A DNA stretch of 64,000 nt from an uncultured Acidimicrobiia bacterium (GCA_964195235.1 CAXMOW010000005.1:2642-66641); one strand, 5' to 3'; shown: positions 8,851-48,245, numbered from the stretch's first letter. Translations and numbers: made by a program. Notes: a model not told the origin generated them from the sequence alone.

Positions 8851-10154
8851 TGGACCATTGCCTCCATGTCAGGTCCGTAGGCGCCGACATACTCCACTTT
8901 GCGCCACTCCCCCGGCTCACCTGCGTCGAGGCGAACAACACCGTCGATCTCAGGAGCGTGTCGATAGGAGCGAGCGATCGGAACCCCGTCTTCGACCTGA
9001 TCCACCAACACCTCGTCATCAAGGCCAAGCCAAGCTGCGTTGGCTGCGGCCGTCGCCTCCTCTTGGACTGACGTGAGACGCCTGAGACGAGCCATGGTGA
9101 GCTCACGAGGCACCTGATTGTCCATGTCGGCGGCCGGAGTGCCCGGCTCGGCCGAGTATGGGAAAAACCCTGCCCAGTCGAGACGAGCTTGCTCCAGAAA
9201 CTCCTCGAGCTCGTCTGTGTGCGACTCGGTCTCGCCTGGGAACCCGACGATGAAAGAAGACCTGAGGGCTGCCTCGGGAGCAAGTTCTCGAATCCTCTGG
9301 ATCAGCGCCAGGTGTTTTTCGGTGTTGCCGGGGCGCTTCATACCCCGCAGCAGGGGCTGGGAGACGTGTTGAAGCGACAGGTCAAAGTAGGGGACGACCT
9401 TGTCATTGGACGTCATCTCGGTGAGGAGACGTTCGTTGATCTCACGGGGATGCAGATAGAGAAGTCGGAGCCGGCGCAACCCCTCGACATCAGAGAGGAA
9501 CGTGAGGAGGTCAGGAAGACCCCCCGGTGCGTCAATGTCGCGCCCATAGGCCGCGAGATCCTGTGCAACCAGGATCACCTCACTAACGCCGGAGCGAGTG
9601 AGCGCAACCAGCTCCTCACGGATCTCGGTGGGGCGCCGAGAGCGTTGTTTGCCTCTGATCAGGGGAATCGCACAAAAGGTGCACGGCTTGTTACAGCCTT
9701 CGGCAACCTTCAGATAGGCATATGGCAGACCAGTAGCGGGTCGGCCGGTGGCGTGCAGGATGTCCATCGCCGGGCGCCGCTTCATTTCGACCGGGTGCCA
9801 TCGCGTCAGATCGTCGAGGACGCCCACCAGATCGCCATACTTGTCCAGGCCAAGAACCGCGTCGACCTCGGGGAGAGCGCTTTCGACCTCGGTGCCGAAC
9901 CTTTGGGCCATACAGCCGATCACGATCGAGCGTGCGCCGCTGGCTTTGCGATCCTCCAGCTCGAGAATGGTCTCGACCGACTCTGCCCTGGCCTCTTCTA
10001 TGAAGGCACATGTGTTCGTCATCACAACGTCGGCCGTCTCGGGTGAGTCAGCCCACGTGTACCCGGCCTCGGAGAGCATCGCTATCACCTTCTCCGAGTC
10101 CACCTGATTCTTGGCGCAGCCGAGAGTCGTCAGCCAGAGGGAGGGACCTGCCAT
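8847..10154 (-). CDS. rimO: Ribosomal protein S12 methylthiotransferase
   Basis: MTTase N-terminus LTTLGCAKNQVDSE, radical-SAM motif CNKPCTFCAIP, and a TRAM domain. I moved the start to the ATG at 10154 (MAGPSLWL..). The longer ORF to 10268 has a Cys/Arg-rich, non-conserved-looking leader and would overlap the next ORF. Confidence 0.9.
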   Translation of the reverse strand: MAGPSLWLTTLGCAKNQVDSEKVIAMLSEAGYTWADSPETADVVMTNTCAFIEEARAESVETILELEDRKASGARSIVIGCMAQRFGTEVESALPEVDAVLGLDKYGDLVGVLDDLTRWHPVEMKRRPAMDILHATGRPATGLPYAYLKVAEGCNKPCTFCAIPLIRGKQRSRRPTEIREELVALTRSGVSEVILVAQDLAAYGRDIDAPGGLPDLLTFLSDVEGLRRLRLLYLHPREINERLLTEMTSNDKVVPYFDLSLQHVSQPLLRGMKRPGNTEKHLALIQRIRELAPEAALRSSFIVGFPGETESHTDELEEFLEQARLDWAGFFPYSAEPGTPAADMDNQVPRELTMARLRRLTSVQEEATAAANAAWLGLDDEVLVDQVEDGVPIARSYRHAPEIDGVVRLDAGEPGEWRKVEYVGAYGPDMEAMVQ

Positions 10155-10218
10155 CAGAGCGACACTAAATGCGTGTGCACAAAGGCGTACATGTTCACGC
10201 GTTGTGCAGACGCATCTC

Positions 10219-10476
10219 TCAATGGGTGCGGGTGGCTTCGACCACCGACAGGAGTTCGGCCGAGTCAACGGCGTCGGCCAAAGTGTTCCAGGTCGCTGTG
10301 CTCACGACGTTCTCCTCTTCGATTTCGGCACACGCCAGATAAACCGCGTCGGCGAGCGGGCCAATGTTCTGATCGACCTCAAAAGCTTCCGCAATGGAGG
10401 TGCGGGCGAGTGGAACGTCCAACCGGCCGACAGCCCTGATCGCCTCCTCGGCGAAGGCCGTCACCTTCAAGTCCAC
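10219..10476 (-). CDS. Hypothetical small acidic protein (85 aa)
   Basis: The GTG lies 4 nt after the stop of the upstream GAPDH-like gene. GC-rich third codon positions are consistent with coding. No family recognised and no clear RBS. Confidence 0.4.
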   Translation of the reverse strand: MDLKVTAFAEEAIRAVGRLDVPLARTSIAEAFEVDQNIGPLADAVYLACAEIEEENVVSTATWNTLADAVDSAELLSVVEATRTH

Positions 10477-10480
10477 GGGC

Positions 10481-11536
10481 TCAGATCTCGGCGTACAGGT
10501 AGCGACGGAGAATGTCGAGCCGTTCTTCCCTGGTCTCGGGATGCAAATACCAGAGCAACGCCGCCACCGTGGACAACAACGGATTCCCGTCTTGTGGTGT
10601 GAAGGAAAACCCGACCACTTCGTTGCCGTCGCGCACCGCCAGCGTGTCCAGAGGAATGACAGCCTGGCTCATGAGGCGTCCGAAATACCCGTGGTCGCGA
10701 CCGAAGGAGAAGATCTGGTTGGCCGACGTCTTGTGAGTGACCGCGATCCGGGTGTTCTCCATCAGACGTTCCTTGACCTCGTCGACGCTGATGTCGTGGT
10801 CGAGAGTCAGCGAAAAGTGGAGCGAATGCATGTACTGGGTGTTCATTTTCAGCGCACTCGAGAAAATATTGAGGTCATAGCCCAGGGTGCTGAACAGGTC
10901 ATGTGAGTCCCGGGCATGGTGGGTGCCGAAACGCTCATCGGCATGGCTACCTACGGTTGGGCTGGCGATGAACCCGTCGTCCTGAGAGATGTCGTTGGCC
11001 CGTCGGATGCAGAGGAACCGACCGTCTTCGAGATGGTTGGTTCCGTCAAGATCCATTCCCAGCGCCTTGACCAGCACTGAGATGTTGTGAGTGTTGCAAC
11101 TGACGATCTGGATGAATTTGTCCTCATTGTGAACGAGGGCCTCGTCGTTGATTCCACGGGCATACATCTTGCCGAAGCCGTATTCCGAGCCCTGGGCCAT
11201 GTAGCCAATCGGACCTGAAGCTTCGCCATAAAACTCCTGTTTGTTCTGATTGCCCACTGGAGTGCAGTCGATGACCACGGTGGCCCTCCCGATGGCCTCC
11301 CGCGTCTCGTACTTCGGAGTGTGACCCAACTCTTCGAAAGTGGCCTTGCGGTTGTCATCGACACAGAGCATCGCTCCACGGCGCACCAGATCGGAGACTT
11401 TCGCCCTTTCAGTAATCAGCGGAGTGCGCTTGTGGAATGTGACCTCGTCAATGCCGAAGTGCTCCTTGTTGTCGGCAAGCAGGCCGATCAGTGGTTCACC
11501 GATGGTGCCCGTGCCCACAACGTGGACGATGTTCAT
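10481..11536 (-). CDS. Type II (archaeal-type) glyceraldehyde-3-phosphate dehydrogenase-like NAD(P) oxidoreductase
   Basis: 351 aa from the ATG at 11536 (GGAGGG RBS 7 nt upstream). Rossmann N-terminus VHVVGTGTIGEP, and VVIDCTPVG. A catalytic-Cys motif IVSCNTH aligns with the archaeal GAPDH VSCNTT. A downstream HH..D segment is also present. Confidence 0.7.
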   Translation of the reverse strand: MNIVHVVGTGTIGEPLIGLLADNKEHFGIDEVTFHKRTPLITERAKVSDLVRRGAMLCVDDNRKATFEELGHTPKYETREAIGRATVVIDCTPVGNQNKQEFYGEASGPIGYMAQGSEYGFGKMYARGINDEALVHNEDKFIQIVSCNTHNISVLVKALGMDLDGTNHLEDGRFLCIRRANDISQDDGFIASPTVGSHADERFGTHHARDSHDLFSTLGYDLNIFSSALKMNTQYMHSLHFSLTLDHDISVDEVKERLMENTRIAVTHKTSANQIFSFGRDHGYFGRLMSQAVIPLDTLAVRDGNEVVGFSFTPQDGNPLLSTVAALLWYLHPETREERLDILRRYLYAEI

Positions 11537-11689
11537 GAGAGGTCCCTCCGGAGCAGATTGTGTCCGAAAACGCATGGTACTTGGGTTGCTCGAACCAGCG
11601 AAAGCCCAGCTACGACAGGCTTGAAGCCTCGGTCAAATAGCAAACGCCGAGTTCGAGATTTGCCGAGCTCTGGGAAGCCTCGCCCACTG

Positions 11690-13642
11690 TTAGAGCAAGA
11701 GTGGGTCAGCGTCGATCTGAACCAGCGACGGTCCGTTGTGGTCGAGGGCGAATCTGATCGCGGAGTCGAGCTCCGACGCGTCAGTCACTCGGATGCCGCG
11801 ACCACCACTCAGTTCAGCGAATTCGGCGAAGTCGGGGTTGTGGAGACTGGTCTGCCACACGTCGTACTCAGCACCCCGCTGTTCTTTGCTGATCTTCCCA
11901 AGCTCGTCGTTGACCAGGAGAATCAGTGTGATGTCCATTCCGTATTTCACCGCCGTCGTGAACTCCATTGCGTACTGTCCGAAACCCCCATCACCGGCAA
12001 CGGCAATCACCTGACGTTCGCCTCCGACGGCTGCCCACAGTCCCATGGCTGCAGGAAACGCAAATCCGATTGAACCGAGATAACCGGACATCACCACTGA
12101 CTGCTTGCGGACTTCGAAATAACGTCCGAATGAATATGTGTTGTTGCCGACGTCGACGGCAACAGCAGCATCGGCATCCACTAGGCGAGATAAAGAGTCA
12201 AAGATCGCGGCAGAGTTGACTCCGACGCCGGAGTCATCGGCACGGCGACTGGCCTTCTCTTCACGCCAGATGGCCCACCTCTCCGCCACCTCCTCGGTCC
12301 GGTCCGAAAAAGTGTGTCGAGAGGGCATCCGCTCCTGAATGAGTCTTGCCGTAACCCCGACGTCACCCAGAACAGGAACATCCACGGAATGGAACCGACC
12401 GAGAGCCATGGGATCGTGGTCAATCTGGACGATCGGCTTGTACTCGGCGATTCCAGTGTGATTGGAGAACGACGCTCCAAACACAACAAGGACGTCACTC
12501 TCATTCATGAACCAGGAGGCGACAGGGGTTCCACTACGACCGAGAACGCCACAACCCAGAGGGTGTGAGTCGCTGATCTGACCTTTTGCTTTGAATGTGG
12601 TGACGATCGGGGTGCCCATGGTCCCGGCACACTCGATTATTTGGGCCATGTGGCGCCGCGCCCCCGCGCCCACAATGAAGAGTGGACGCTCAGCCTTTGA
12701 GATCATCTTCAGTGCCGCATCCATCGCCTCGGCCGGCGGAGCAACCTCTCGAGAGCCGGTGCGGCCAATCGGCGAGCCGGATGGACGCAGACTCTCGATC
12801 ACCTGTACTTCGTCAGGGAGCATCAGGTGGGCGACCTCGCGCTCGACTAAAGCGGTCTTGCACGCGAGCGTCATCAGTTCGGCTGCGTCACTACCGGCGT
12901 GCACTGTCTCGCTGAATCTAGCGACGTCCGCAAAGGCCGCCTCGAGATCCAAGTCCTGGAATGCACCCCGACCTCTGATGCTCGAAGGCACCTGACCGGA
13001 CAACGCTAGGACTGGCGCCCGATCGACTTTGGCGTCGTAGAGACCGGTCATGAGGTTGGTGGATCCAGGTCCTGCGATCCCGAAACATGCCGCGAGCTCA
13101 CCAGTCAGCTTTCCGTAGGCGCTGGCCGCGAAAGCCGCGGCACCTTCGTGGCGTATCCCAATGTAAGTGAGATCACCCCGTTCCTCCGCAACACGCATGG
13201 CATCGGCGAAGCCGAGGTTGGAATGCCCAACCATCCCGAACACGTGGGTAACCCCCCAATTCACCATCGTTTCGACCAAGACGTCGCTGATTGTTCTCGG
13301 CCGTTCGGTTTCGATTGGCAGGGCTACATAGACACCGTCGTCTCGCACTTCAGTCGCGAAGCACGTTGGCGCGTCGCTGAATCCTTCAGGAGGTGTGCCG
13401 TCAAGCGGGTTGTAGTCGTATCCGTGCCAAGGACAGCGCAGCCAACCGTGCTCGATCGACCCTTCTCCGAGTGGCCCACCTTGATGTGGGCACTTGTTGT
13501 CGAGGGCACCGTAAGAATCTTGATAGTGAGCCAGAGCAAAACTTCGACGACCGACGTGAACGGTCTTCACCCGGCCTTCGGGTAGGTCGCCGAGATCGGC
13601 AACCTTGTGCCATACGGTGTCGGGTTGGACGCAATCAGTCAT
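11690..13642 (-). CDS. Rieske [2Fe-2S] domain fused to a thiamine-pyrophosphate enzyme (pyruvate oxidase / acetolactate synthase superfamily)
   Basis: 650 aa. The first ~105 aa form a NirD-like Rieske domain (CPHQGGPL...CPWHGYDY). The rest is a three-domain TPP enzyme: GIRHEGAAAFAASAYGKLTG, GPGSTNL, and TPP-binding GDGGFGQY...LVNDELG. Confidence 0.85.
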   Translation of the reverse strand: MTDCVQPDTVWHKVADLGDLPEGRVKTVHVGRRSFALAHYQDSYGALDNKCPHQGGPLGEGSIEHGWLRCPWHGYDYNPLDGTPPEGFSDAPTCFATEVRDDGVYVALPIETERPRTISDVLVETMVNWGVTHVFGMVGHSNLGFADAMRVAEERGDLTYIGIRHEGAAAFAASAYGKLTGELAACFGIAGPGSTNLMTGLYDAKVDRAPVLALSGQVPSSIRGRGAFQDLDLEAAFADVARFSETVHAGSDAAELMTLACKTALVEREVAHLMLPDEVQVIESLRPSGSPIGRTGSREVAPPAEAMDAALKMISKAERPLFIVGAGARRHMAQIIECAGTMGTPIVTTFKAKGQISDSHPLGCGVLGRSGTPVASWFMNESDVLVVFGASFSNHTGIAEYKPIVQIDHDPMALGRFHSVDVPVLGDVGVTARLIQERMPSRHTFSDRTEEVAERWAIWREEKASRRADDSGVGVNSAAIFDSLSRLVDADAAVAVDVGNNTYSFGRYFEVRKQSVVMSGYLGSIGFAFPAAMGLWAAVGGERQVIAVAGDGGFGQYAMEFTTAVKYGMDITLILLVNDELGKISKEQRGAEYDVWQTSLHNPDFAEFAELSGGRGIRVTDASELDSAIRFALDHNGPSLVQIDADPLLL

Positions 13643-13842
13643 GGTCCGAACCTAATCTACGTCCGGAGAACCTGGTCGAGGATCGATCTGTAGATCTTCC
13701 CAACTCCCCCGTCGGTTTTGCTTATGACGGTTGCGATGACGTCGTCGCCCAACCCAGCCCCCGAGATCCATTCCTGCTGAATCGGAAACTTCGTCCTGCA
13801 CAAACACCGAAAACGGTGGTCGTCATGTCCACATGATGTCTA

Positions 13843-13885
13843 GCGGGTGCAGTTGTGGTCTCTGAGCGACCACAACTGCACCCGC
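13843..13885 (-). terminator. Perfect 18-bp stem hairpin downstream of the ABC permease gene
   Basis: gcgggtgcagttgtggtc-tctgagc-gaccacaactgcacccgc. It starts 10 nt after the permease stop (TAG at 13895-13897) and has no U-tract. Confidence 0.5.
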
Positions 13886-13894
13886 TTGGGATCG

Positions 13895-16738
13895 CTATTC
13901 GCTCCGGAGCGCCACCGCCGGTGTGATCGCTGCGGCGCGTTTCGCCGGCGCCGCCCCGGCCAGGAGCGCCGCAACCGTGGGAACAACCACAACTACCACC
14001 AGACTCAGCCACGGCCAAGAGAACGCGAATCCGCTATCTCCAAACGTGTCGGAGTTCACAATTACCTGATAGGCAGTGACCAGACCCAAGGCCGCCCCGA
14101 TGACAACTCCTTGGATAGCGATGAACCCGGATTCGACGAGGAACGAGCGACGAACTGTTGTGGCTTGCGTCCCGAGGGCTCGCAGCACACCAATAGCCCG
14201 GCGTCTCTCCCTCACCGCACGAATCAGAACCACAGCAAGACCAGCGATGCCAATCAGTAAGCCAAGAGAGAGGAACCCTTGAAACAGGCGAATGATGGCA
14301 ACCGTCTCCGCGACCTCCTCTTCCACACCCGCGGTGAACGTCTCGGCACTCATCCCGAAATCCAGAAGCTCCGCGTTGAGCCGGCCGGCCACCAACTCGG
14401 CATCCACCCCAGCATCGACAGACACGTAGAAAAGACCGGATGCGGGCTCGGCATCCAAAGTCGTCTCGACGAGATCGATAGCTGCATACGAGCCGGCAAA
14501 CAGGAAGTCGCTGGCAAGAACGCCGGCAACCGTCATCATCCGACTCTCTCCGGACGTCGTAAGCATCTCGACGATGTCGCCGGGAAGGTATCGCTTGGCT
14601 CCGGGCCCCGATCCATTGTCAAGGAAGAAGTCATCAACGATCAGCAGACTCGAATCGCCGAGCACAGCTCTAAAAACACTCTCGTCAGAGTCATAGCCCT
14701 CTAGCCGGGCTCCAAGCGCCGGAGCATCGAACTCGAGAAGTCTTTCGTCGAAACCGGTAACACGCCATGGAAGCGGGTCGTCTTCACCATCCACCTCGAA
14801 CTCGGCAGAGGAACGAGTAAGCGGCGCGGCAACGACCACCCCCTCGACGGCTGTTACTTGACTTTCTGAAACAGGATTGAAGGCGGCGGAGCTGGCGACG
14901 ATGTCGTAGCCAGCACGGCTGTCGTCGGCCAATCCACGGGTCTGATCAGAGAGGATCTGGGAAAAAACCGCCATGAAAGTGATCATGAACACCACCAGCG
15001 AGAACATCCCGAGAAGCAACCCGGTTCGACCCTTGCGAGCCAACGGATAGACAAGGCCAAGCCGCGTGGAGAGACCCGCCCCTGCCTTCGACGTGGCGCT
15101 CACCGCCCAATTCCACAGGGGCGCAGCCGATGCTGACACTGTGACAGCCCCAGCTACCAGAACAACGCCCTGGACCACGAAGACATCAATGTCTGACTCA
15201 CGCATCGCGTCCGGGAAGAGGTTGAATACGAACACACCCCATGCCATTGCCGTCATCCCTCCGACGAGGCCCGCAATGCGGTCTCCAACAAGAGGCCGAA
15301 TCAGCGGAATCGCTGAGAATGCCATCACTGGGACACCCGCCATGGCCGCGGTTTGGACGTCACCTGACAACCCGAGGTAGGTGATACCCGCTCCAATCAA
15401 CACCCCAACCACTGATGCAATCATCACCTTGGCTCGTCCTTTTCGAGTTGGAGGTTGGGGAAGATCACGCACCGCTGCAATCACGTTGAAATGAGAAATC
15501 CTCAGTGCCGTGGCCCAGATGGTGATCATCGTGATACCCAGGCCAATGGCAGCCGCGAGCATCAAACTCTCGGCCTGTGGCGCGTAAGTGATGTTGAGAA
15601 AGTCGTTTTCGTTGAAAAAGATGCTCTTGAGCACCTGGACGAGTATCCAGCCAACCCCCACACCGACACCAACGCCAACCAGGGAAGCGGTCACCGAATA
15701 GACAGCTCCCTCGATTGCGAACGACTTCGTCACTGCGGACCTCGAGAACCCAATTGCTCGCATCACGCCAAGCGAGGACTTCCGTTCCTCGGAGAGCATG
15801 ACAAAGAGATTGACGATCAGAAGGATGCCGGCGATAACGGCAAAACTGCCTATCCCGTTGAAGAGGGTGGTGAATTCGGCTCCTTCTGCGACGGCTGAAT
15901 CGAGAAGATCCGTTTTCGTCGATGACACGTCGACCTCCTGGAACTCCGCCGTGACGATCTCCAGGTCGGCAACGACAGCTTCCGTGTGGTCGGCGCCCGT
16001 TAGCCAATCACCGGTGTTGGAAATCAGAACCTCGGCTCGCGGGGGTTGATTTACCTCAACAGCACCCGACTGAAATGACTCGATGGTGCCTGCTGGTAGG
16101 TAGATCGAGTTGTATCCGGCGGAACTGTATCGATCGATCACCTGTCGCACGGTGAAGGTCTCAGCCTTCCCAAACGCGTGAATCTGAAAATTATCGCCTG
16201 CCGACAGACCCAACTGTTTGGCTACGAGAGAAACAAGAACGGCCTCGGTGCCCGTGGGAGTCTCCCCTGCGCCAAAGAAGCCACTTGTTCTGGGATCTCC
16301 GCCGAATGCGCGCGCTTGATCAAAGTCGATTTCCGCAATCCAGACCGATGGCTCACCTACTGGATCAGATCCGATAGTGGTCACAGCGGTAGGAAGCGAG
16401 AGGACCGAGACAACGCCGTCGACATTTGATTGATGGGCGTCTTTGACCGCCGCTTCCAGGGCGGGGAGTTGGGCCGGGTCCTCAATAGTCACCGACTCGT
16501 CGATCGGGCCAAGGGAGGTGTCGACGACGCTGCCAACACCGTCACTGATCGTGTCGCCTACTGCGAAAGAGGCAACAATGATCGCGGTTCCGAGCATGGT
16601 GCCCGCCGTGACGAGAAGGGCCTCGGTCGGACGGGCGACAACATTTCGCCATGCAAGGCGACGCAGTGTCGCCTTTCTAGCCACCCAGATCGCTGGAGCG
16701 AGCAGAACAAGCGCAATGACGAGCGCTGTCTGCGACAT
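13895..16738 (-). CDS. ABC transporter permease, FtsX/MacB-type with duplicated FtsX domains
   Basis: 947 aa. Multiple TM helices in two blocks separated by large extracytoplasmic domains. ATG overlaps the stop of the upstream ATPase (TGATG). Confidence 0.85.
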   Translation of the reverse strand: MSQTALVIALVLLAPAIWVARKATLRRLAWRNVVARPTEALLVTAGTMLGTAIIVASFAVGDTISDGVGSVVDTSLGPIDESVTIEDPAQLPALEAAVKDAHQSNVDGVVSVLSLPTAVTTIGSDPVGEPSVWIAEIDFDQARAFGGDPRTSGFFGAGETPTGTEAVLVSLVAKQLGLSAGDNFQIHAFGKAETFTVRQVIDRYSSAGYNSIYLPAGTIESFQSGAVEVNQPPRAEVLISNTGDWLTGADHTEAVVADLEIVTAEFQEVDVSSTKTDLLDSAVAEGAEFTTLFNGIGSFAVIAGILLIVNLFVMLSEERKSSLGVMRAIGFSRSAVTKSFAIEGAVYSVTASLVGVGVGVGVGWILVQVLKSIFFNENDFLNITYAPQAESLMLAAAIGLGITMITIWATALRISHFNVIAAVRDLPQPPTRKGRAKVMIASVVGVLIGAGITYLGLSGDVQTAAMAGVPVMAFSAIPLIRPLVGDRIAGLVGGMTAMAWGVFVFNLFPDAMRESDIDVFVVQGVVLVAGAVTVSASAAPLWNWAVSATSKAGAGLSTRLGLVYPLARKGRTGLLLGMFSLVVFMITFMAVFSQILSDQTRGLADDSRAGYDIVASSAAFNPVSESQVTAVEGVVVAAPLTRSSAEFEVDGEDDPLPWRVTGFDERLLEFDAPALGARLEGYDSDESVFRAVLGDSSLLIVDDFFLDNGSGPGAKRYLPGDIVEMLTTSGESRMMTVAGVLASDFLFAGSYAAIDLVETTLDAEPASGLFYVSVDAGVDAELVAGRLNAELLDFGMSAETFTAGVEEEVAETVAIIRLFQGFLSLGLLIGIAGLAVVLIRAVRERRRAIGVLRALGTQATTVRRSFLVESGFIAIQGVVIGAALGLVTAYQVIVNSDTFGDSGFAFSWPWLSLVVVVVVPTVAALLAGAAPAKRAAAITPAVALRSE

Positions 16739-45182: not shown

Positions 45183-46170
45183 AATAGTCACTTTCGAGGA
45201 CCCCAGTGGCGAAGGGGCGCCGATCAAACTCGATAGGTTTGTGGTCGGGAAGGACGCAGCGGATCTCGAACTCCGACGACGAAAGGTCCCCGAACCAGAC
45301 CCCCACTACGTCGACCTGGGCATGCTCTACCGGTTCGCCCAAGTAGAGCAGGCACGACGGTCCGGCGCCGACGGTCTTGTCCCGCTGCACATTGCGGTCC
45401 GGGGTCATATGGGAACCGGGAAGGACCACGACATCGAGCAATTCGCCGCTGCAATGGGTCTCCCCTACTTCCGGATCCCGCTGACCGGTGAAGTACGAGA
45501 CGTCACGCTGATCGGGTCGACCCATCTTCACGGTGACGGCAAGGGTGGCACTGAGAGTCGATGGGAGGACGGTGACATCACCCGAGCGCTTCGCGGTCCT
45601 GCCCTGCTCAATCTCTCCGAGTTGAACGCTGCCGGCGCTGAGACGTTGTTTGCCCTCCATGGTTTGCTCGATCGCTACGGAGCCCTCGACCTGCCCAACG
45701 GCGAAACAGTGAGCCTCCGAGACGATGTGAGGGTCTTCGGCACCATGAACCCCACCGACATTCGGGACTATGCCGGCACCCAGACCCTCAACAAGGCCTT
45801 CGCCGACCGATGGGTGATTTGGGAGAAGAAATTTCCCGCTGAGGAACAGGTCAAGGAAATGCTCACCACCCGCTATCCAAGACTGAACGACGAATACGTC
45901 GAGGCTGTGTCCCGACTCACGGTTGAGATCAACGCATCATTCGACACGACCGACACCGACGTTCGTGTGGAGACGCCGCTCTCACTTCGTGCTGTCCTCG
46001 ACAGGGTGCCGACTGGGCTCTTGGTCTACGCAGATCGTGAAGACCCACTACGTCATGCCTGGGATGAGTTTGTCCTGCCACAGGTGGATGCGTACGACCG
46101 TGACCACTATGAGACGGTGTGGAATGCGGTGGTAAGACGCGGTCCTTCGGTCAAGCCGTTTGGAAAGTGA
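45175..46170 (+). CDS. CobS-like AAA+ (AAA_5/MoxR-related) ATPase with deviant Walker A/B residues
   Basis: Start moved to the TTG at 45175 (AAGGAG RBS at 45163-45168, overlapping the upstream stop). VRGHMGTGKDHDIEQFAAAMGLPYFRIPL.., ALLNLSELNAAGAETLF and GTQTLNKAFADRW parallel CobS (GTGKSTHIEQ, FDEYDAG, GTQ.NQA..DRW). Confidence 0.8.
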   Translation: MPEIVTFEDPSGEGAPIKLDRFVVGKDAADLELRRRKVPEPDPHYVDLGMLYRFAQVEQARRSGADGLVPLHIAVRGHMGTGKDHDIEQFAAAMGLPYFRIPLTGEVRDVTLIGSTHLHGDGKGGTESRWEDGDITRALRGPALLNLSELNAAGAETLFALHGLLDRYGALDLPNGETVSLRDDVRVFGTMNPTDIRDYAGTQTLNKAFADRWVIWEKKFPAEEQVKEMLTTRYPRLNDEYVEAVSRLTVEINASFDTTDTDVRVETPLSLRAVLDRVPTGLLVYADREDPLRHAWDEFVLPQVDAYDRDHYETVWNAVVRRGPSVKPFGK

Positions 46171-46182
46171 TTGCTATAGCAA
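46171..46182. promoter_or_regulatory. Perfect 12-bp palindrome TTGCTATAGCAA (candidate operator) upstream of the dehalogenase gene
   Basis: Starts 1 nt after the CobS-like stop and lies 76 nt upstream of the dehalogenase start. There is no further support. Confidence 0.2.
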
Positions 46183-46257
46183 CAGGTGGCGAAATACGCC
46201 ACGCGGTGCACGCGCAACATTTCAACGTCCCATTGACCTGCCACCTACGCTCGCCGG

Positions 46258-47148
46258 ATGATCGAAGCACTACGCACCGACGACAACCGATTCGCCGATC
46301 TTTCCGACTGGCCATATGAGCCTCGGTACGAAATCGATCTGGCCGGTAGCGAAGGCCTCCGGATGCACTACATCGACGAGGGGCCTTCTGACGCTGAGGT
46401 ATTTCTCTGCCTGCACGGCGAGCCCACGTGGGCATACCTCTACCGGCGGATGATCCCAACGTTTCTTGGTTCGGGTGCCAGGGTGGTGGCCCCGGATTTC
46501 TTCGGGTTCGGACGCTCCGACAAGCCGGTTGAGGATGCGGTCTACACCTGGGACTTTCACAGGGATTCGCTTACTGGCTTCATCGAACGTCTCGACCTCA
46601 CCAACATCACCCTCGTGGTTCAAGACTGGGGCGGAGTCCTCGGTCTGAGTCTTGGTGCCGACATGGCTGACCGGATTTCGGGTCTGCTCATCATGAATAC
46701 AGCGTTTGGCATCGGTGGGAAACCGACGCAGGGATTCGTCGACTGGCGAGACTACGTCGCTCGCACACCGGACTTGGACGTGGGCAGGCTGATGAAGAGA
46801 ACAGTGCCCCATCTCACCGACGCTGAAACCCGTGCCTACGACGCCCCTTTCCCGAGTGTCGCTCACAAGGCAGGTGTCAGGCGATTCCCTGCGATCGTGC
46901 CAACCAGCCCTGATATGGATGGTGTGGAGATTTCCAAGAGAGCTCTCAGCTGGTGGGCAGACGCTTTCGACGGCCGCTCTTTCATGGCTATTGGAGCGAC
47001 CGACCCGGTCCTTGCTTCAGTCATGCCCTGGGTTCGGGAACGCATCAACGGATGCCCCGAGCCACTCGTCCTCGAGGAAGCTGGTCACTTCGTCCAGGAG
47101 TGGGGCGAAGAAGTTGCGATCGCAACACTGACCTATTGGAACAGGTGA
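46258..47148 (+). CDS. Haloalkane dehalogenase (HLD-I, DhlA-like alpha/beta hydrolase)
   Basis: 296 aa. IEALRTDDNRFADLSDWPYEPRY.., FLCLHGEPTWAYLYRRMIP, VAPDFFGFGRSDKP, nucleophile-Trp pair VVQDWGG, and catalytic His in EEAGHFVQE. It is close to my recollection of Xanthobacter DhlA. Confidence 0.85.
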   Translation: MIEALRTDDNRFADLSDWPYEPRYEIDLAGSEGLRMHYIDEGPSDAEVFLCLHGEPTWAYLYRRMIPTFLGSGARVVAPDFFGFGRSDKPVEDAVYTWDFHRDSLTGFIERLDLTNITLVVQDWGGVLGLSLGADMADRISGLLIMNTAFGIGGKPTQGFVDWRDYVARTPDLDVGRLMKRTVPHLTDAETRAYDAPFPSVAHKAGVRRFPAIVPTSPDMDGVEISKRALSWWADAFDGRSFMAIGATDPVLASVMPWVRERINGCPEPLVLEEAGHFVQEWGEEVAIATLTYWNR

Positions 47149-47162
47149 ACTACGTTTGAGTC

Positions 47163-48245
47163 ATGGCCTACGACCTCGGTAACACCGATTTAGACGAACG
47201 ACTCCAGCAGCTCGTGGGCGACGCATCAGAGAACGACAACAAGGACCTGATCGCCGAGCTGGTCACCACCGTTCTCAAACTCCACCGAGACGGCGCAACT
47301 CGTGGTGATCTGAAGATGATCAACACCGCTGTCAAAGAAATGAGGTACTCAAACCTGGTCTTTTCCCGGCACGAGGAGCCCAAGGTCACCATCTATGGCT
47401 CGGCGCGTACCCAGGAGGGTGATCCCAACTACGAGATGACCGTCTCGTTCGCCAAATTGATGACCAGCCACGGTTGGGGTGTGATTACCGGGGCGGGACC
47501 CGGGATCATGGAGGCCGGCAACAAGGGCGCGGGTAGCAACAACTCCTACGGTGTCAACATCCGGCTCCCGTTCGAGTCTGCGGCCAACGAATACCTGGAT
47601 GAAAACCGAACTGTCAACTTCAAATACTTCTTCACACGCAAACTCGGCTTCGTCAAGGAATCAAACGCATTCGTCATTCTGCCCGGTGGTTTCGGCACCC
47701 TGGACGAGACGTTCGAACTGCTCACCCTGATCCAGACCGGAAAGAGCGATCTCCATCCGATCGTGCTACTCGAAGCTGAGGGAACTGGCTACTGGGAACC
47801 GGTCATCAGATTCATAATGGACAATCAACTCGCTGCTGGGCTGATCTCGGAGTCGGATCTCTCACTCTTTACCCACACGACCGACCCGCAAATGGCGTGT
47901 GATCACATCCTTGAGTTCTATACGAACTATCACTCGCAACGTTATGCAGGCGGCCGACTCATCCTACGTGTGCGGGAAACACCAACCGACGCCGACCTGG
48001 CTTCGCTCAACGAGGACTACGCCGACATCGTGGCTGAAGGACGAATCGAAAGGGCTGAGCCCACCCAGACCGAGATAGACGACGACGACGCACTCCACTG
48101 CGAGCGAGTCTCATTTGTGTTTGATCGACGGCATTTCGGGCGACTCCGACAGTTGATCGATCGCCTCAATGAAATGGCCGACCTTCCCGAGACGACCCAA
48201 ATTCCCATGCCGATGCGTGAGGAACAAGCCGAAAGAGCCTGGTAG
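47163..48245 (+). CDS. LOG family (TIGR00730-type) nucleotide N-glycosidase-like protein with N- and C-terminal extensions
   Basis: 360 aa. GSARTQEGD, GGGPGIMEA-like (GAGPGIMEAGNKGA), and PGGFGTLDE. Confidence 0.78.
   Translation: MAYDLGNTDLDERLQQLVGDASENDNKDLIAELVTTVLKLHRDGATRGDLKMINTAVKEMRYSNLVFSRHEEPKVTIYGSARTQEGDPNYEMTVSFAKLMTSHGWGVITGAGPGIMEAGNKGAGSNNSYGVNIRLPFESAANEYLDENRTVNFKYFFTRKLGFVKESNAFVILPGGFGTLDETFELLTLIQTGKSDLHPIVLLEAEGTGYWEPVIRFIMDNQLAAGLISESDLSLFTHTTDPQMACDHILEFYTNYHSQRYAGGRLILRVRETPTDADLASLNEDYADIVAEGRIERAEPTQTEIDDDDALHCERVSFVFDRRHFGRLRQLIDRLNEMADLPETTQIPMPMREEQAERAW

Follow-up and report, generated by a model that had tools for sequence, protein, structure and literature searches.

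A widely conserved fusion of a ferredoxin-type Rieske domain with a pyruvate oxidase-type core in Acidimicrobiia: a probable 2-oxoacid decarboxylase with a built-in iron-sulfur electron outlet

A 64,000-nucleotide stretch of DNA from an uncultured Acidimicrobiia bacterium (GCA_964195235.1, CAXMOW010000005.1:2642-66641; below, "the window" means this whole stretch) contains a gene for a 650-residue protein, P0001, in which a Rieske [2Fe-2S] domain is fused to an enzyme core of the pyruvate oxidase (POX) type. We consider it probable that this fusion is an oxidative 2-oxoacid decarboxylase, in which oxidation at thiamine diphosphate (ThDP) would deliver two electrons to flavin adenine dinucleotide (FAD), and these would leave one at a time via the fused Rieske domain to a protein acceptor. 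To our knowledge, all characterised POX-type ThDP/FAD enzymes give their electrons either to O2 (POX/SpxB) or to a membrane quinone (PoxB, pyruvate:quinone oxidoreductase (PQO), CidC).

The fusion is real, intact and widely conserved. Its reading frame, counted from the first ATG, runs through 650 codons on the minus strand (11690-13642) without interruption, and four Pfam domains were matched in P0001, each above its gathering score; for the Rieske family PF00355 on residues 11-83 the score is 54.2 bits against a cut-off of 20.3 (E = 1.4e-14). The original prediction, made from the sequence alone, had described exactly such an in-frame combination of a Rieske domain with a complete three-domain thiamine pyrophosphate (TPP) enzyme, and the motifs it quoted, CPHQGGPL, CPWHGYDY, GIRHEGAAAFAASAYG, GDGGFGQY and NDELG, are all in place (Table 1). 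An AlphaFold2 (AF2) model of the whole protein reaches a mean predicted local distance difference test score (pLDDT) of 91.1 and a predicted template modelling score (pTM) of 0.89.

The same four domains occur in more than 120 sequence clusters at 70-99% identity, mostly from metagenome-assembled genomes (MAGs) of Acidimicrobiia and named only "thiamine pyrophosphate-binding protein". When species-representative genomes were scanned, relatives turned up in at least 591 of them, and Acidimicrobiia account for nearly all of the top 80. Within an even sample of this class (201 genomes, 102 genera) the fusion is present in 34 genomes from 27 genera, with one copy each, and all 34 matches run in one frame from residue 10 or earlier to residue 200. 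Among about 270 Actinomycetota genomes outside the class it was found in 7. A second clade at about 53% identity comprises Marinimicrobia and Bacteroidota, including a sequence named by NCBI Maribacter sp. 2308TA10-17, which is probably a cultured strain because its name carries no "MAG" tag; the fusion is rare there (3 of 201 genomes of the order sampled). In an alignment of 84 sequences covering both phylum-level clades, C51, H53, C70, H73, E166, F228, Q229, R369, S370, H395, D551, N578 and E587 are invariant, K583 is kept in 82 sequences, and the 19-residue junction between the Rieske and PYR domains (residues 103-121) shows not a single insertion or deletion. A frameshift or sequencing artefact, or a loss of the Rieske ligands in orthologues, would be at odds with the recurrence of the four domains, the single-frame span of the 34 matches, the indel-free junction and the invariant ligands C51, H53, C70 and H73. 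One Actinomycetota orthologue (L104, G456:C1:724500-729500) is interrupted by a frameshift at about 2686-2704, between PLTGESPF and DAVPSYPLEV. We considered it as a natural split into separate Rieske and ThDP genes and rejected this, as the frameshift lies inside the Rieske domain; the locus represents a pseudogene or else a misassembly. The long N-terminal extensions of L105 and L109-L111 proved to be Arg-rich read-through of GC-rich DNA with no domains, and proteins of about 1100 residues among the matches are tandem ThDP enzymes and irrelevant here.

The Rieske domain itself looks functional, to judge from its ligand boxes. These read C51-P-H53 and C70-P-W-H73, a CxH...CxxH arrangement with 16 intervening residues. 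A disulfide-forming Cys pair within the boxes is the mark of the high-potential Rieske type of the bc1 and b6f complexes. Since the boxes of P0001, CPHQGG and CPWHGY, hold no second Cys, the domain is, on its sequence, of the ferredoxin (low-potential) type and not of the bc1 type. In line with this, the closest solved relatives of residues 9-107 are CarAc (PDB 1VCK; E = 2.6e-10) and T4moC (PDB 1VM9; E about 2e-5), which share both the ligand spacing and the lack of the Cys pair. The domain had been called a NirD-like small Rieske fold; small it is, but the NirD model PF13806 scores only 21.3 bits against a cut-off of 27. CarAc and T4moC take single electrons from an FAD enzyme, a flavoprotein reductase. 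In the fusion, by contrast, the carrier is covalently joined to its flavoenzyme, which would be a ThDP-dependent 2-oxoacid oxidase in place of a reductase that depends on NAD(P)H. Near the fusion gene there was no sign of an oxygenase partner.

The remainder of the chain is a core of the POX type. The top NCBIfam models are pyruvate oxidase, pyruvate dehydrogenase and PoxB, with PRK08611 "pyruvate oxidase" as best match (389.6 bits). A sequence search of the PDB places Escherichia coli PoxB first (3eya/3ey9, E = 2e-66, residues 116-643 against PoxB 3-525), followed by Lactobacillus plantarum POX and Corynebacterium glutamicum PQO, and a Foldseek search with the AF2 model finds 1pox, 3eya and 9ev6 at E values of about 1e-40 and TM scores of 0.78-0.90 by target, with 1y9d and 1pox as top matches. 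The three-domain ThDP/FAD fold is that of PoxB (3EY9/3EYA), PQO (9EV3-9EV6) and Staphylococcus aureus CidC. E166, F228, Q229, D551 and N578 align to PoxB; its catalytic Glu, FQ pair, GDG..N motif and the equivalent of E587 are all kept in the fusion; E587 corresponds to Glu483 of the SpxB-type POX of L. plantarum and Aerococcus (1POX, 4FEE, 1V5E), the group that also gave the best NCBIfam match. In POX and PoxB the middle domain is the FAD-binding domain, and its GxG, TT..KG and IQ(I/V)D loops are common to the fusion and its POX and acetohydroxyacid synthase (AHAS) relatives.

Compared to these enzymes the core shows two marked departures. PoxB, PQO and CidC possess a C-terminal peptide for membrane binding and lipid activation, which in PoxB includes a helix at residues 558-568 (PMC7245740). 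The alignment of P0001 to PoxB stops at about PoxB residue 530, and none of the 84 family sequences differs in its end point, so this tail is absent from the fusion. Moreover, Phe465 of PoxB, which has been credited with aiding the transfer from ThDP to FAD (PMC7245740), and the equivalent Phe479 of POX are replaced by Lys583. An identity as acetohydroxyacid or acetolactate synthase (ALS) was considered and discarded: the best ALS model scores 289.7 against a cut-off of 509, and the sites of the AHAS motifs PGMHG and RFDDR, which are present in the genome's own AHAS-like paralogue (C48), read LGRSG and SFSNH in the fusion.

The iron carrier at the N-terminus is not always a Rieske domain. After clustering at 50% identity, the nearest relatives lacking it bear an N-terminal rubredoxin (P0128, at 49% identity, P0132, P0139, P0148 and P0151), and one cluster representative carries Fer4_19 and two CDGSH domains ahead of the Rieske domain, a long form which recurs in three further species genomes (L106-L108). 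When a tree is inferred from just the ThDP core, all Rieske forms, four CDGSH-Fer4_19-CDGSH-Rieske forms and two rubredoxin forms fall into one clade with 100% support in the Shimodaira-Hasegawa-like approximate likelihood ratio test and a stem of 1.01. Every sampled member of this clade has an N-terminal iron carrier; just outside it come further rubredoxin forms together with two unfused proteins. The clade has a signature with no counterpart in bona fide POX, namely GRSG after strand 3 of the middle domain (R369/S370), H395 after strand 4, GQY after GDGGF, and K583, and P0128, P0132, P0123 and L106-L108, at 44-60% identity, share its elements R369/S370/H395/GQY/K583. Because the tree came from a "quick" search in which the inner branching order is not settled, we claim only that different iron modules sit on one core clade, i.e. 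that they are swappable, and no direction of replacement. The sister fusions thus match P0001 in core clade and signature and differ in an exchanged or extended N-terminal module; we found no characterisation of them. The original prediction knew of no characterisation of this architecture, and full-text searches returned no literature on a fusion of Rieske, rubredoxin or CDGSH domains to a POX-type enzyme: the architecture is visible in databases, and no study of it was found.

These data bear on the direction of electron flow. In an opposite scheme, the Rieske domain would feed electrons into the flavin, either driving a reductive or reverse reaction or keeping the FAD reduced for a non-redox AHAS-like carboligase or lyase. 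Nothing in the architecture by itself decides between the two directions, the usual role of a Rieske ferredoxin is that of a donor to its partner, and the divergent core with its long stem, below all equivalog cut-offs and with Lys in place of the Phe tied to ThDP-to-FAD transfer, could be accommodated by such a scheme. Nevertheless we regard electron input as unlikely, since the best-matching characterised relatives, PoxB, POX and PQO, are all oxidative FAD enzymes and the genome has a separate AHAS-like paralogue with the motifs that the fusion lacks. In addition, the potentials of rubredoxin, CDGSH and ferredoxin-type Rieske centres should lie far above that of the 2-oxoacid/acyl couple, which would make the reduction an unlikely uphill process.

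Where the Rieske domain may sit on the core was addressed by a docking prediction. For this, the chain was cut between residues 111 and 112, and the core (112-650) was paired with the Rieske domain (1-111), with FAD and the 2Fe-2S cluster riding along. The interface score ipSAE (interaction prediction score from aligned errors) was 0.71 (median of 0.85, 0.71 and 0.50), whereas the best of three controls reached 0.17; contact agreement between the runs was at least 71% and the pLDDT of the partner at least 87. When the tool was calibrated, 58 of 80 solved complexes and 2 of 110 mismatched pairs came up to this mark, counts that hold here only roughly, given the custom alignment and the small molecules present, and the ligand itself is unscored. 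A Foldseek search of the model found no solved chain with both a Rieske domain and a POX core; the docking result is therefore not the recall of a like complex. In the predicted interface, the cluster loops (Rieske residues 50, 54, 56, 61-62, 64 and 69-76, H73 among them) meet residues 367-380, 394-399 and 590 of the core. According to the secondary structure of the model, the core loops come after strands 3 and 4 in the Rossmann-like fold of the middle domain, and they carry the clade-specific R369, S370 and H395. In Rossmann-like domains the edge after these strands is where the dinucleotide binds. The same loops align with PGMHG and RFDDR of the AHAS-like paralogue; loops 367-370 and 390-394 and D408 presumably correspond to FAD contacts of PoxB (251-254, 274-278 and D292). 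Conservation is higher at the interface than elsewhere (0.85 versus 0.66 in the core, 0.91 versus 0.57 in the Rieske domain), a difference confounded with cofactor binding. This prediction supports, but does not show, a direct path from flavin to cluster.

Alternatively, the middle domain may hold no FAD at all, and the Rieske cluster would oxidise hydroxyalkyl-ThDP directly, one electron at a time, in the manner of the proximal [4Fe-4S] cluster of pyruvate:ferredoxin oxidoreductase (PFOR). Such a route would fit the Lys that replaces Phe between ThDP and flavin as well as R369, S370 and H395, which replace residues of the FAD-binding relatives in both predicted contact loops, and the docking score takes no account of the ligand. 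However, the glycine-rich, TT..KG and IQ(I/V)D loops are as in the POX and AHAS relatives, and the predicted seat of the Rieske domain is the middle domain rather than the PYR/PP interface where ThDP sits, which makes a flavin-free enzyme very unlikely in our view.

Candidate acceptors come from gene neighbourhoods, which were compared across 83 related loci. The commonest linked gene (21 of the 83) encodes a 538-residue fusion of a Rieske domain to a Glu_synthase domain of the flavin mononucleotide (FMN) type, hereafter Rieske::GltS-like, which appears to be uncharacterised. It usually overlaps the start of the POX-like fusion gene and is translationally coupled upstream of it in many relatives (e.g. 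L033:6363-7979 (+), L002, L027, L122:6168-7784); between its Rieske domain and that of P0001 the identity is only 22%. Within the class sample, the fusion occurs in 16 of 23 genomes with a Rieske::GltS-like gene, adjacent to it in 9 of the 16, versus 18 of 178 genomes without, a raw odds ratio of about 20 that is uncorrected for kinship. The pair is also found in one Flavobacteriales genome, with a DUF2721 gene in between. In another Flavobacteriales genome, a gene two positions downstream of the fusion (L121:5992-7050 (-), 352 residues) encodes a transmembrane b-type cytochrome Ferric_reduct domain with a Rieske domain at its C-terminus, a candidate membrane acceptor. At L112:2485-6282 an unfused relative, P0136, follows an unfused 411-residue GltS-like FMN gene; the POX-like/GltS-like pairing thus exists without Rieske tags. 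The adjoining acylphosphatase gene is a single-locus hint at an acyl-phosphate product. Peripla_BP_6, which follows one rubredoxin form and the fusion in L002, was rejected as a general partner, as it occurs in only 1 of the 83 loci.

In the favoured reading, the enzyme would be soluble, and a small 2-oxoacid, with pyruvate as the default guess, would be decarboxylated by Glu166-activated ThDP to the hydroxyalkyl-ThDP enamine, and two electrons would pass to FAD in the middle domain, both steps as expected from homology. The flavin would then be reoxidised in two one-electron steps by the protein's own N-terminal Rieske domain, whose predicted tip position is at the cofactor-edge loops, and the cluster would hand the electrons to a protein acceptor. 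As outlet, the Rieske domain would stand in place of the membrane quinone used by PoxB and PQO or the O2 used by Lactobacillus POX; compared to the latter, the presumed acceptor would be an internal Fe-S cluster. In the relatives, the final acceptor would mostly be the neighbouring Rieske::GltS-like protein, with the Ferric_reduct::Rieske membrane protein in one Flavobacteriales locus and an in-chain CDGSH/Fer4_19 wire in other variants. The acyl-ThDP could be hydrolysed to the acid or undergo phosphorolysis to the acyl phosphate. Direction of electron flow, substrate, product and acceptor are all what we infer. The idea that the Rieske domain is a built-in electron partner of a POX/PoxB-type decarboxylase is in line with the POX-type core, the missing membrane tail, the swappable carriers and the docking prediction, while the reverse reaction, which had been left open in the original prediction, appears less likely on thermodynamic grounds.

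Several observations weigh against this scheme. The scores of the core fall far short of all curated equivalog cut-offs (389.6 against 742 for NF006377, 298.8 against 792 for the PoxB equivalog NF006591 and 290 against 637.85 for TIGR02720), and its clade sits on a long branch. The Phe that aids ThDP-to-FAD transfer in PoxB is a Lys in the fusion, and what suggests FAD binding by the middle domain is only its homology and its conserved loops. The docking was run on a cut chain and the native unit is probably a dimer or tetramer, so that the predicted contact may be formed in cis or with a neighbouring subunit. The co-occurrence counts are phylogenetically non-independent. Finally, neither a Rieske::GltS-like nor a Ferric_reduct::Rieske gene was found in the bacterium's own genome, whose assembly is 86% complete; the five Rieske open reading frames (ORFs) and the single P450 of this genome show no linkage to the fusion.

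Other features of the neighbourhoods are noted for completeness. At the Maribacter sp. 2308TA10-17 locus (L118, 4476-9494) the fusion lies in a co-directional row of msrB, osmC, an acetyltransferase gene, DUF2721, redoxin, NTP_transf_9, the fusion and msrA, an oxidative-stress-repair neighbourhood, and in 5 Acidimicrobiia loci a peroxiredoxin gene is divergent from the fusion. A gene of about 240-335 residues stands immediately 3' of the fusion in 21 of 83 loci (e.g. L033:9966-10973 (+)); Pfam, NCBIfam and Atlas gave it no name beyond actinobacterial "hypothetical protein" clusters and a weak DUF5996 lead. Directly upstream, aceB-aceA (malate synthase and isocitrate lyase) are found in 5-6 of the closest loci (L001:2573-5431, L004, L005, L007, L009, L010). 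The window has an FtsX-type ATP-binding cassette (ABC) transporter in their place, and in the own assembly an isocitrate lyase-family match is only partial, at a contig start. The own genome also encodes a second Rieske fusion of 575 residues (G000:C1, about 46015-47742; locus L091:1504-3231, +) beside CtaA (heme A synthase), in which an N-terminal Rieske domain (CPHQG..CAWHNW) is followed by about 460 soluble, mostly helical residues with no Pfam or NCBIfam family.

The Rieske domain could also be a sensor of redox state, iron, O2 or NO, or a structural cap that gates the active site like the C-terminal peptide of PoxB, in either case off the electron path. Its predicted seat over loops at the mouth of the cofactor/active-site region, the rigid junction of fixed length, the stress-repair genes around the Maribacter fusion and the divergent peroxiredoxin genes would suit such a role. 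Against this, a rubredoxin at the same position, or two CDGSH domains and Fer4_19 added to the Rieske domain, resemble an electron wire, and the recurrent neighbours bear Rieske domains themselves. On balance, a role in sensing or gating seems quite unlikely.

Table 1. Coordinates of the features discussed, in positions of the window (residue numbers are those of P0001).
Feature	Position	Strand	Basis
Whole gene, 650-residue Rieske::ThDP/FAD-type enzyme (P0001)	11690-13642	(-)	single open frame; four Pfam domains above cut-off; AF2 model
Rieske [2Fe-2S] domain, residues 9-109	13316-13618	(-)	PF00355; all-beta in the model; nearest solved relatives CarAc and T4moC
Rieske box I, CPHQGGPL, ligands C51/H53	13469-13492	(-)	translation checked; ligands unchanged throughout sets of 70 and 84 sequences
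Rieske box II, CPWHGYDY, ligands C70/H73; centre of predicted docking surface	13412-13435	(-)	translation checked; ligands invariant; residues 69-76 make contact with the core in the predicted complex
Short linker IETERPR, residues 110-116	13295-13315	(-)	junction 103-121 of the same length in 84/84 sequences
PYR domain (TPP_enzyme_N), residues 117-233	12944-13294	(-)	Pfam E = 4.9e-34
Catalytic Glu166 in PYR domain	13145-13147	(-)	invariant in 84 sequences
F228-Q229 in PYR domain	12956-12961	(-)	both invariant in 84 sequences
Middle domain (TPP_enzyme_M), residues 308-432	12347-12721	(-)	Pfam E = 1.9e-30; gapless alignment to PoxB 204-306
Loop plus helix 367-380, LGRSGTPVASWFMN, where the Rieske cluster loops are predicted to dock	12503-12544	(-)	interface residues 367-369, 371, 373, 376-377, 379-380; R369 and S370 clade-specific, invariant
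Loop 394-399, NHTGIA, second predicted docking segment	12446-12463	(-)	interface residues 394, 397, 399; H395 clade-specific, invariant
PP domain (TPP_enzyme_C), residues 497-643	11714-12154	(-)	Pfam E = 1.6e-31
ThDP-Mg motif GDGG...N, G550-N578, with clade-specific GQY after GDGGF	11909-11995	(-)	translation checked; D551 and N578 invariant; aligned to PoxB D433 and N460
Lys583 at the position of PoxB Phe465 / L. plantarum POX Phe479	11894-11896	(-)	alignment to 3eya; Lys in 82/84 sequences; Met, Phe or Leu in bona fide POX relatives
Gene resembling type II glyceraldehyde-3-phosphate dehydrogenase (GAPDH)	10481-11575	(-)	no Pfam match; best NCBIfam 79 bits against cut-off 185
85-residue ORF	10219-10476	(-)	starts 4 nt after the stop of the GAPDH-like gene; no Pfam or NCBIfam family

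Upstream of the fusion gene, the ABC-permease gene ends 250 nt away, directly followed after its stop by a perfect 18-bp hairpin with a 7-nt loop and no U-tract (13843-13885), which marks the boundary between the ABC-permease operon and the leader of the fusion gene. With the permease gene ending at this distance and behind the hairpin, the fusion gene probably has its own promoter. A simple sigma-70 scan of 10100-14000 found no sigma-70-like promoter, and terminator-like sites in the same region showed no excess over shuffled sequences.

Downstream lie a GAPDH-like gene and an 85-residue ORF, and it had been proposed that the three genes form one compact pathway from a 2-oxoacid to an acyl phosphate or aldehyde. 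The genes are indeed co-oriented and close together in the window, their order is kept in 9 related loci, and the 85-residue ORF, which always stands behind the GAPDH-like gene in 8 related loci, is conserved as a protein (56-89% identity). This conservation and constant position indicate that the ORF is a real gene. Linkage to the fusion, however, is seen in just 9 of 83 loci, all of them from the closest relatives. Of the 201 genomes sampled from the class, 80 have the GAPDH-like gene and 34 the fusion, but only 14 have both and only 7 have them adjacent. The GAPDH-like gene occurs in single copy in all 21 genomes of the window's family, in one of which it lies 246 kb from the fusion, and again in single copy in 45 of 47 one-megabase, streamlined genomes of another family that lack the fusion. 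It is not the genome's only GAPDH either, as two canonical Gp_dh_C copies are located on contig 28. From this distribution it looks like a conserved housekeeping enzyme independent of the fusion, and a common pathway of the three genes is most improbable.

Functionally, though only by analogy, the favoured scheme recalls PFOR and the related 2-oxoacid:ferredoxin oxidoreductases (OFOR), where ThDP-dependent oxidative decarboxylation likewise sends electrons out via Fe-S centres to a protein acceptor. PFOR has [4Fe-4S] clusters and no flavin, requires CoA and is oxygen-sensitive. Its fold and domain set are unrelated to those of the fusion, in which no PFOR Pfam domain was matched. We tentatively suggest, as a bolder and in itself doubtful extension, that the family is a new class of oxygen-tolerant 2-oxoacid:iron-sulfur-protein oxidoreductases on a POX scaffold, a functional counterpart of PFOR in which the Rieske tag would be the plug for Rieske-to-Rieske transfer to other Rieske-tagged enzymes. 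On this extension, a Rieske::GltS-like FMN partner would link the oxidation of the 2-oxoacid directly, and without NAD(P)H, to a reductive step of the amination type, and a Ferric_reduct::Rieske partner would lead the electrons into or across the membrane.

In conclusion, if the favoured reading is true, an anchor-less clade with a swappable iron carrier would represent a third electron outlet for POX-type enzymes and, compared to the oxygen-sensitive PFOR route, would allow flavin-based single-electron withdrawal from 2-oxoacids in aerobes. The names under which these proteins are filed, "thiamine pyrophosphate-binding protein", "pyruvate oxidase" and "Rieske 2Fe-2S domain-containing protein", conceal a distinct family, whose occurrence in several phyla and in a probably cultured Maribacter strain opens its function to standard biochemistry.

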